Under the pieces are notes generated by a model. That model worked only from the letters and a program-made list of their open reading frames with translations. It was not told the DNA's origin and did not search any database. A stretch of DNA of 7,537 nucleotides from a virus (Duplodnaviria > Heunggongvirae > Uroviricota > Caudoviricetes), in IMG/VR virus record IMGVR_UViG_2537562231_000016; one strand, given 5' to 3'. How positions within the stretch are numbered: the first letter of the stretch is position 1; every line of letters starts with the position of its first letter. Made by a program: the position numbers and the translations under genes. Below, in pieces: positions 4,279 to 5,328 of this stretch.

Positions 4279-5328
4279 TCAAACGATTAAATCCTGAACT
4301 TCCCTGACTGTCTGCTCAAAACGTCCGGTCTCCAGTTCAACGCCAATCGCACGACGCCCGAGCGCCAGTGCAGCTTTTACCGTTGAACCTGAGCCCATAA
4401 AAAAATCTGCAACCAGGTCTCCCGGACGACTGCTTGCGCGGATTATCTGCTGCAGCATTTCTGCCGGTTTTTCGCACGGATGTTTCCCGGGATAGAACTG
4501 CACCGGTTTATGTGTCCACACATCCGTGTACGGCACCTGCGCCGTCACACCAAAATACCGCCGCAGATGCTTATATTCACTCTGCAGCTCCACATACTGC
4601 CGGTTCAGTGACGTATACGTATCCACCAGCTGGTGGTGGGGCTTTTCCAGTTCACCGCGCTGATGTTTCTCTTCTGCCACCCGGGCAAACAGCGACTGTA
4701 ATTTCAGATAATCGCTTTCGTTCGGTAGCTGCCACTGACTGGCACTGAACCAGTGCGACACCATGTTTTTCTTTCCTGTGGCATCTGCAATCTGTTTTGC
4801 CGTTATCCCCAGGGCCGCGCGCGCATCACGAAAGTAAGAAATCAGCGGGGCCATCACATGCTGTTTCAGTGCACTGCCCTTCGCCGCATACCCGGCATCT
4901 TTCGGACGATACGGCCCCTGATAATGTTCCGCGAACAGAATGCGCTCTGTGGCGGGGAAATACGCCCGCAGGCTTTCCTTGTTGCATCCGTTCCAGCGTC
5001 CGGACGGCTTCGCCCAGATAATATGGTTCAGCACACTGAAGCGTTCACGCATCATGATTTCGATATCAGATGCCCGGCGATGACCACAGAACAGGTAAAG
5101 ACTTCCGGCAGGTTTCAGCACCCGCCAGAACTGCGCCAGACACTGGTCCAGCCACTTCAGGTAATCATCGTCGCCCTTCCACTGGTTATCCCAGCCCTCA
5201 GGCTTCACTTTAAAGTACGGCGGGTCCGTAACTATCAGGTCAACAAAATTTTCGGGTAACGACCGGATAAATTCCAGGCAGTCGGCGTTGATTAACTCAC
5301 AACTGGATATTTTTACAGTATTAAGCAT
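4279..5328 (-). CDS. Orphan DNA methyltransferase, beta-class N6-adenine/N4-cytosine family (motif IV DPPY before motif I FxGxG); no restriction partner gene in the window
   Basis: 349-aa ORF with TDPPYF near the N-terminus and DFFMGSGSTVKAALALGRRAIGVE near the C-terminus, the circularly permuted order typical of the N6_N4_Mtase family. Sits between Q and the tRNAs, as in some Stx2 phages as I recall. Shine-Dalgarno sequence is weak. Confidence 0.88.
   Translation of the reverse strand: MLNTVKISSCELINADCLEFIRSLPENFVDLIVTDPPYFKVKPEGWDNQWKGDDDYLKWLDQCLAQFWRVLKPAGSLYLFCGHRRASDIEIMMRERFSVLNHIIWAKPSGRWNGCNKESLRAYFPATERILFAEHYQGPYRPKDAGYAAKGSALKQHVMAPLISYFRDARAALGITAKQIADATGKKNMVSHWFSASQWQLPNESDYLKLQSLFARVAEEKHQRGELEKPHHQLVDTYTSLNRQYVELQSEYKHLRRYFGVTAQVPYTDVWTHKPVQFYPGKHPCEKPAEMLQQIIRASSRPGDLVADFFMGSGSTVKAALALGRRAIGVELETGRFEQTVREVQDLIV

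Follow-up and report, generated by a model that had tools for sequence, protein, structure and literature searches.

Judged from its sequence, the open reading frame (ORF) at 4279..5328 on the minus strand of a 7,537-nucleotide (nt) stretch of tailed-phage DNA (Caudoviricetes; IMG/VR virus record IMGVR_UViG_2537562231_000016), hereafter the window, is an M.EcoGI-type allele of a beta-class phage N6-adenine methyltransferase. The gene as such is already known, a further copy of a characterised enzyme. The RNA leader that touches its start codon, conserved and covarying in the comparisons made here, is to all appearance a new observation, found only before this gene family. The findings suggested that the gene is expressed late, under the control of the antiterminator Q, and that the leader may provide a second layer of control. 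The features of the methyltransferase gene were as follows.

4279..5328, minus strand: methyltransferase coding sequence, 349 amino acids (aa), predicted M.EcoGI/M.EcoGII-type non-specific N6-adenine enzyme (ORF list, Pfam, motifs, model)
5215-5226, minus strand: motif IV, D35-P-P-Y38 (sequence)
4387-4401, minus strand: motif I, F310-M-G-S-G314 (sequence)
4549-4926, minus strand: helical target-recognition region, approximately residues 135-260 (model and alignment)

The ORF listing of the window gave one full-length frame of 349 aa, on the minus strand; an earlier note on this DNA had named the gene without giving a strand. That note had assigned it to the beta-class N6A/N4C methyltransferases, and the assignment held: a Pfam search matched residues 29-340 to PF01555 (N6_N4_Mtase) with an E value of 2.3e-45 and a score of 155.7 bits (cut-off 26.7), and the predicted fold matched beta-class enzymes. 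The permuted motif order that it had described was also recovered, as DPPY (35-38) lies N-terminal to FMGSG (310-314), the order of the beta class. Both motifs were invariant in an alignment with 123 relatives, leaving the catalytic residues unmutated. A Dam-type enzyme (alpha-class, GATC) found no footing here, as PF02086 had no match in the methyltransferase and the motif order is the reverse of FxGxG-before-DPPY. The AlphaFold (AF2) model had a predicted local distance difference test score (pLDDT) averaging 70.5, with core blocks at 83-95 and a helical insert at approximately residues 147-255. Its top Foldseek matches were 8urk, 6pbd, 1g60 and 1eg2 (E values of 1e-13 to 1e-11), and the nearest solved structures by sequence were M.BceJIV, M.RsrI, CcrM and M1.MboII, all beta-class N6A/N4C enzymes; a search of the PDB found no structure of M.EcoGII.

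No endonuclease partner was found among the ORFs of the 7.5-kb window or within +/-9 kb of the syntenic E. coli locus, the contents of the window being all accounted for (Q, RusA, DUF968, a winged-helix ORF, transfer RNAs (tRNAs), iraM, nanS-p, holin, ydfR and IS1). The methyltransferase is therefore an orphan, as the earlier note had held, rather than half of a type II restriction-modification pair. It is also widespread: of the 5,426 complete E. coli genomes, 1,978 contained homologous DNA, in up to six copies each, the exact window protein was encoded on 61 contigs, and its 90%-identity cluster had 5,932 members. Proteins at least 80% identical were encoded by ca. 260 phage records, mostly of Stx-converting phages.

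M.EcoGI and M.EcoGII are prophage methyltransferases of the O104:H4 outbreak strain. M.EcoGII is a 349-aa beta-class enzyme that methylates up to 99% of deoxyadenosines in any context (Murray et al. 2018, PMC5778455), acting in vitro on double- and single-stranded DNA, on each strand of RNA/DNA hybrids and on RNA, with lower activity on RNA than on DNA (PMC5778455), and it behaved as a dimer in size-exclusion chromatography (PMC11551740). M.EcoGI (Fang et al. 2012, as cited in PMC5778455 and PMC4659465) is likewise non-specific and, according to Murray et al. 2018 and related papers, identical to M.EcoGII at 333 of 349 residues.

The window protein was identical to the prophage copy of E. coli O104:H4 2009EL-2071 at 345 of 349 residues (99.3%), differing only at residues 28, 74, 85 and 297, where the window has F28, A74, R85 and R297. 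Residues 86-296, the target-recognition region included, were the same in both, as was the synteny (Q / small ORF / methyltransferase / tRNA / iraM / nanS-p / holin). The 2009EL-2071 gene differed from M.EcoGII by approximately 15-16 real substitutions, which fits the published M.EcoGI to M.EcoGII figure; the identification with M.EcoGI of the O104:H4 C227-11 prophage, likewise 349 aa, thus runs through this sister strain and the difference count rather than the C227-11 sequence itself. Compared with M.EcoGII (GenBank EGT69837.1), which shares the length, motifs, architecture and prophage origin of the window enzyme, 328 of 350 alignment columns matched, or ca. 332 of 349 (ca. 95%) once evident optical character recognition errors were discounted, the comparison sequence being the SUPREM supplement, a machine-read PDF table with visible errors (NHHIW, GRRRAIG and TKVPQ, flagged against family-invariant columns). 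Approximately 17 substitutions separated the two enzymes, ca. 11 of them within the helical recognition region (residues 148-263).

Since the window protein and the O104:H4 copy have the same recognition region, and the characterised members of the clade are non-specific, the specificity of the window enzyme, which the earlier note had considered unreadable from the sequence, could be predicted by homology to M.EcoGI and M.EcoGII: the enzyme would methylate adenine without regard to sequence context.

The leader was delimited by alignment, covariation and folding, and its helices by comparative structure.

5329..5465, minus strand: conserved structured 5' leader touching the ATG, approximately 140 nt
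5452-5457 with 5411-5416, minus strand: helix P1ext
5440-5451 with 5421-5432, minus strand: helix P1
5414-5419 with 5391-5396, minus strand: helix P2', mutually exclusive with P1ext
5381-5386 with 5352-5357, minus strand: helix P4
5373-5379 with 5361-5367, minus strand: helix P5
5399-5404 with 5329-5334, minus strand: helix P3, covering the UGAUCC right before the AUG

The stretch of approximately 150 nt between the small upstream ORF (65 aa) and the ATG showed 81% column identity over Escherichia, Salmonella, Pantoea and Klebsiella. With each species represented by a single genome, a scan yielded 80 loci, ca. 50 of which matched the leader by blastn at 72-85% identity, not counting an E. albertii copy identical to the window; at some of these the small ORF could not be detected. 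Mean pairwise identity over 37 loci was 0.81 for the leader, 0.82 for codon positions 1 and 2 of the gene and 0.46 for codon position 3. Five to six helices were modelled, in which 95% of cells were paired, compared with 26-44% when the 3' partners were slid, and 12-13 pairs showed compensatory double changes, a count that none of 500 shuffles reached; the shuffle control is lenient for related sequences, and more weight falls on the slid controls and on the occurrence of several pair types. The best covarying pair occurred as CG (28), AU (10), UA (10) and UG (6), and the strongest covariation lay in helix P2'. Folding of the window copy gave a minimum free energy of -63.4 kcal/mol (z = -4.4), with the AUG paired.

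A covariance model of the leader found a single copy at each locus that it hit, in every case adjoining the start codon, with 57 strong hits of 56-178 bits, no hits in Xenorhabdus and only weak ones in Photorhabdus. A 19-base signature of the leader occurred in 120 IMG/VR loci, and a methyltransferase homologue lay 72-73 nt downstream in all 114 that could be tested, the remaining six ending too soon to tell. Rfam gave no match at its gathering score; the best permissive hit was P26, which scored 24 bits (gathering score 36) and lay, in the window copy, on the opposite strand. A literature search by leader sequence returned nothing relevant. Xenorhabdus and Photorhabdus (loci L060-L089) had a shorter leader (ca. 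120 nt upstream of the methyltransferase) that keeps AAUGGrCG, the P1 hairpin, CCAUUCGC and the CAGAG loop and has no middle domain (P2', P4 and P5), which suggests that the leader is modular.

The elements between Q and the leader were placed as follows, all on the strand of the methyltransferase gene.

5903-6724, minus strand: antiterminator Q, 273 aa, PF03589 type (Pfam)
5858..5897, minus strand: lambda-like promoter pR', with -35 TTGATT at 5892-5897, -10 TAAATT at 5870-5875 and pause element AACGAT at 5858-5863 (lambda alignment)
5799..5820, minus strand: first terminator after pR', the tR' equivalent, CCCGCCGCCTGGCGGG followed by T6 (terminator scan)
5479..5676, minus strand: 65-aa winged-helix ORF (ORF, phrog_331)
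5465..5492, minus strand: intrinsic-terminator-like hairpin GCCTTCCGCAGTGAAGGC followed by a T-run (terminator scan)

The placement of the gene downstream of pR'/tR' in a Q late operon, as described in the earlier note, was borne out by this layout, with Q, the pR'-like promoter and the terminators upstream and the lysis genes downstream on the same strand; the minus-strand order was Q, pR' with its pause element, terminator, 65-aa ORF, terminator, methyltransferase, tRNAs, nanS-p and holin. The promoter directly follows Q, with a spacing of 16 nt between TTGATT and TAAATT, and its -10 and sigma-70 pause sequence align base for base with lambda pR' (GGTAAATTTG..AACGATGGG). A sigma-70 consensus scan reported no promoter between 3700 and 6100, missing pR' because only 8 of 12 positions match. 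The -10 and pause element are nearly identical to those of lambda, though Q belongs to another family (PF03589).

The first terminator, a strong one called at 5820-5805, aligned with the 3' end of lambda tR'. The lambda pR'/6S RNA/tR' unit and the StxS unit of Stx phages are built in the same way, with a late promoter just after Q and a conserved -10 and AACGAT, and have their first terminators at 194 nt and 258 nt, respectively (PMC7547250), compared with ca. 45-60 nt from the predicted transcript start in the window. Because the terminator is so near, the constitutive short transcript would be much shorter than 6S RNA or StxS. Unlike either of these units, the window adds a second terminator and the structured leader before the first cargo gene. 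The second hairpin, called at 5492-5475, overlaps the stop codon of the 65-aa ORF, and an equivalent GC hairpin with a T-rich tract stands 11-16 nt ahead of the leader in most related loci; 23 of 37 passed a strict automated terminator test, because many hairpins carry mismatches or weak U-tracts. The same module stands immediately upstream of stx2AB in an Stx2a phage, and the position of the small ORF and the methyltransferase, after Q and ahead of the lysis genes, recurs in prophages of Salmonella, Pantoea and Klebsiella. Pfam assigns the Q proteins of these prophages to at least two families, PF03589 and PF06530, and gave no hit for the upstream gene in Salmonella.

In Stx phages, pR' is constitutively active and its transcripts are terminated at tR' during lysogeny unless Q acts (PMC7547250), in keeping with the reports that these methyltransferases are silent in lysogens. 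M.EcoGI and M.EcoGII were unexpressed and gave no methylation signal in the lysogen (PMC5778455). M.EcoMV, of the ST131 strain EC958 prophage Phi4 and reported as 99% identical to M.EcoGI, likewise gave no methylation signal and was judged inactive in the lysogen from reverse-transcription polymerase chain reaction (PMC4659465); it is prophage-borne like the window gene. The window gene has the lambdoid prophage location of the clade, and its two terminators and structured leader would be consistent with such silence. The silence of such close homologues argues against epigenetic modification in lysogens, a role that the earlier note had put forward and that the published data contradict.

The 65-aa ORF belongs to phrog_331 and carries the NCBI names "TrmB family transcriptional regulator" or "DprA-like winged helix". 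It was 80-97% identical across genera, from Escherichia to Klebsiella, and lay just upstream of the methyltransferase in 55 of the 80 genome loci. It modelled as a minimal winged helix (pLDDT 89.7), and Foldseek returned generic winged-helix matches only (IclR/MarR regulators, O-methyltransferase N-domains, SelB RNA-binding domains and Z-alpha). With such hits, a likeness to the winged-helix domain of DpnI that reads N6-methyladenine (m6A) was unsupported, and a paper on winged-helix m6A sensors makes no mention of the 65-aa ORF.

The leader sequence has no canonical Shine-Dalgarno sequence before the methyltransferase ATG. An invariant UGAUC(C/U) adjoins the AUG and is predicted to pair with an upstream GGUCA in helix P3; we take it to be complementary to the GGAUCA of the 16S ribosomal RNA 3' tail. 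As P2' excludes P1ext, a switch between two folds is possible. The leader would then be an undescribed cis-regulatory RNA dedicated to this gene family, in which P1ext and P3, as opposed to P2', hide or expose UGAUCC and the AUG, a reading that we put forward tentatively and with the balance somewhat against it. The signal to which such a leader answers might be a ligand, the winged-helix protein encoded beside it or the kinetics of folding during Q-modified transcription. An antisense RNA was considered as well: G.U outnumbered A.C by only 52 to 34 in the modelled helices, but a G.U was present in P1ext in 38 of 42 sequences and in P3 in 35 of 42, which favours the sense strand as the functional RNA. 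The inverted repeat P1 may also be a DNA operator for the winged-helix protein; the leader persists at loci where no homologue of the 65-aa ORF was detected. A leader-encoded peptide (a 60-aa ORF at 5321-5503, or an upstream ORF at CAUG) was rejected, since single-base indels separate the related loci and the AUG is missing from four of them.

Taken as a whole, the account of a non-specific m6A enzyme, expressed late through Q, with an anti-restriction role and the leader as second control, is in our judgement quite probably right. The homodimer would use S-adenosylmethionine and methylate adenines in essentially any context. Among the protein-coding cargo of the Q-dependent late operon the methyltransferase would come first, and in the lysogen pR' transcripts would end at the two intrinsic terminators before the gene. 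After induction, Q-modified RNA polymerase would read through, and the enzyme would be produced along with the proteins for lysis and morphogenesis. It would place m6A broadly over replicated phage DNA ahead of packaging, which should leave that DNA less open to type I, II and III restriction once it enters the next host. Overexpression of M.EcoGII slows growth, and constitutive expression is deleterious (PMC5778455); the toxicity of uncontrolled expression makes a second control layer likely, and the structured leader would supply it as a translational gate that buries the ribosome-binding region and the start codon. Protection of progeny DNA from restriction is the favoured role and a likely one. 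The alpha-class enzymes of the M.HaeV type (Drozdz et al.), compared through the account in PMC5778455 only, are also phage-borne, near-non-specific for adenine and presumed to counter restriction; they differ in having FxGxG first and an unrelated recognition domain.

Several points weigh against this account. Even the source paper only assumes the anti-restriction role, and in it heavily M.EcoGII-modified plasmid transformed 4-5 orders of magnitude worse (PMC5778455), and heavily m6A-modified DNA becomes a substrate for m6A-dependent type IV enzymes. The comparison with M.EcoGI and M.EcoGII carries the sister-strain route and the machine-read table described above. The promoter, the terminators and the Q read-through in the window, as well as the translational gate, we infer from sequence. 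The prophage may be a defective one that never fires its late operon, and the allele itself carries three residues that are rare in the family, placed by the alignment with 123 relatives.

5245-5247, minus strand: codon of S28F
5074-5076, minus strand: codon of L85R
4438-4440, minus strand: codon of S297R

Residue 85, just past the core strand that ends at 82, is Leu in 121 of the 123 relatives and Arg in the window; residue 28, seven residues before DPPY, is Ser in 103 of 123 and Phe in the window; residue 297, Arg in the window, is variable among relatives. Because L85 is near-invariant, the window copy may have altered or lost activity. It could then be a weakened or dead in-frame allele, carried along in decay by a cryptic prophage for which losing a toxic activity was tolerated or even favoured, as the published toxicity of the active enzyme would allow. 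The end of an IS1 element adjoins the lysis genes (the 3' part of its transposase, PF03400, E 6e-48), and syntenic genomes aligned with the window only from base 358 on, which indicated that IS1 inserted beside ydfR and the lysis genes and suggests a damaged prophage. However, the frame is full length with the catalytic and SAM-binding motif residues all intact, 61 contigs encode exactly the same protein, no damage is seen in the leader, terminators, Q or pR', and residues 28 and 297 vary among relatives. We consider decay unlikely, and the window allele is presumably active.

A sequence-specific orphan methyltransferase with a motif of its own, like Dam or CcrM, would agree with the site specificity of all the closest solved relatives (M.BceJIV, CcrM, RsrI and MboIIA) and with the name "site-specific DNA-methyltransferase" that some members bear in RefSeq. 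The name is a generic family label, however, and the structures M.BceJIV (8urk), CcrM (6pbd), M.RsrI (1eg2) and M1.MboII (1g60), although they share the Rossmann core and the DPPY-then-FxGxG order, are only ca. 20% identical and have no counterpart of the helical recognition insert of the window family (ca. 125 residues). With the recognition region the same as in the O104:H4 copy and the characterised clade members non-specific, a private motif seems very improbable. We give hardly any credence to the proposal that the main substrate is RNA rather than DNA, whether host RNA, late transcripts of the phage or the three tRNAs next to the gene. M.EcoGII does methylate single-stranded RNA and both strands of RNA/DNA hybrids in vitro, and three tRNA genes directly follow the methyltransferase in E. 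coli and in Stx phages; the published RNA activity is nevertheless below that on DNA, and in the Pantoea and Klebsiella loci, where no tRNA scan was run, the holin gene follows only ca. 120-145 nt past the methyltransferase.

The rest of the window was annotated as follows.

6721-7095, minus strand: RusA (Pfam/ORF search)
3980..4229, minus strand: three phage tRNA genes, with a CAT anticodon, Arg-TCG and Arg-TCT (tRNA scan, ARAGORN)
3948..3965, minus strand: terminator-like hairpin past the tRNA cluster, the third terminator (terminator scan)
3714-3903, minus strand: match to the STnc100 small RNA family, between the tRNA cluster and iraM (Rfam, 132 bits, gathering score 47)
3353-3688, plus strand: 111-aa ORF, annotated as anti-adapter IraM in syntenic E. 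coli (synteny)
1236-3107, minus strand: nanS-p, between the tRNAs and the holin (ORF/Pfam search)
870..1163, minus strand: phage 21-type holin S, which marks the lysis cassette of the same late transcription unit as the methyltransferase (ORF/Pfam search)
1-357, plus strand: IS1 transposase, 3' part (PF03400)

The ydfR gene lies near the lysis genes, downstream of the holin in minus-strand order. The tRNA gene at 4154-4229 (minus strand) was called tRNA-Met (CAT) by ARAGORN and is tRNA-Ile (ileZ) in related records; a CAT anticodon read as isoleucine would need lysidine modification. The position of iraM in the window is where Stx phages carry stx2AB, and the IraM ORF had no Pfam hit. A truncation of the DUF968 gene was rejected, as the gene merely runs off the window end.

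The methyltransferase gene alone changes nothing, being a further instance of an enzyme already characterised and in commercial use, and the interest lies in the control module upstream of it. With L85R, the allele offers a natural test of a core residue that hardly varies. The two terminators, the conserved winged-helix ORF and the leader RNA offer mutable handles on two questions that specialists have raised, namely the timing of the enzyme and its use to the phage, and the silencing of so toxic an activity. If the reading of the leader as a gate is true, it would explain how a hypermethylase can be carried harmlessly in about a third of E. coli genomes.

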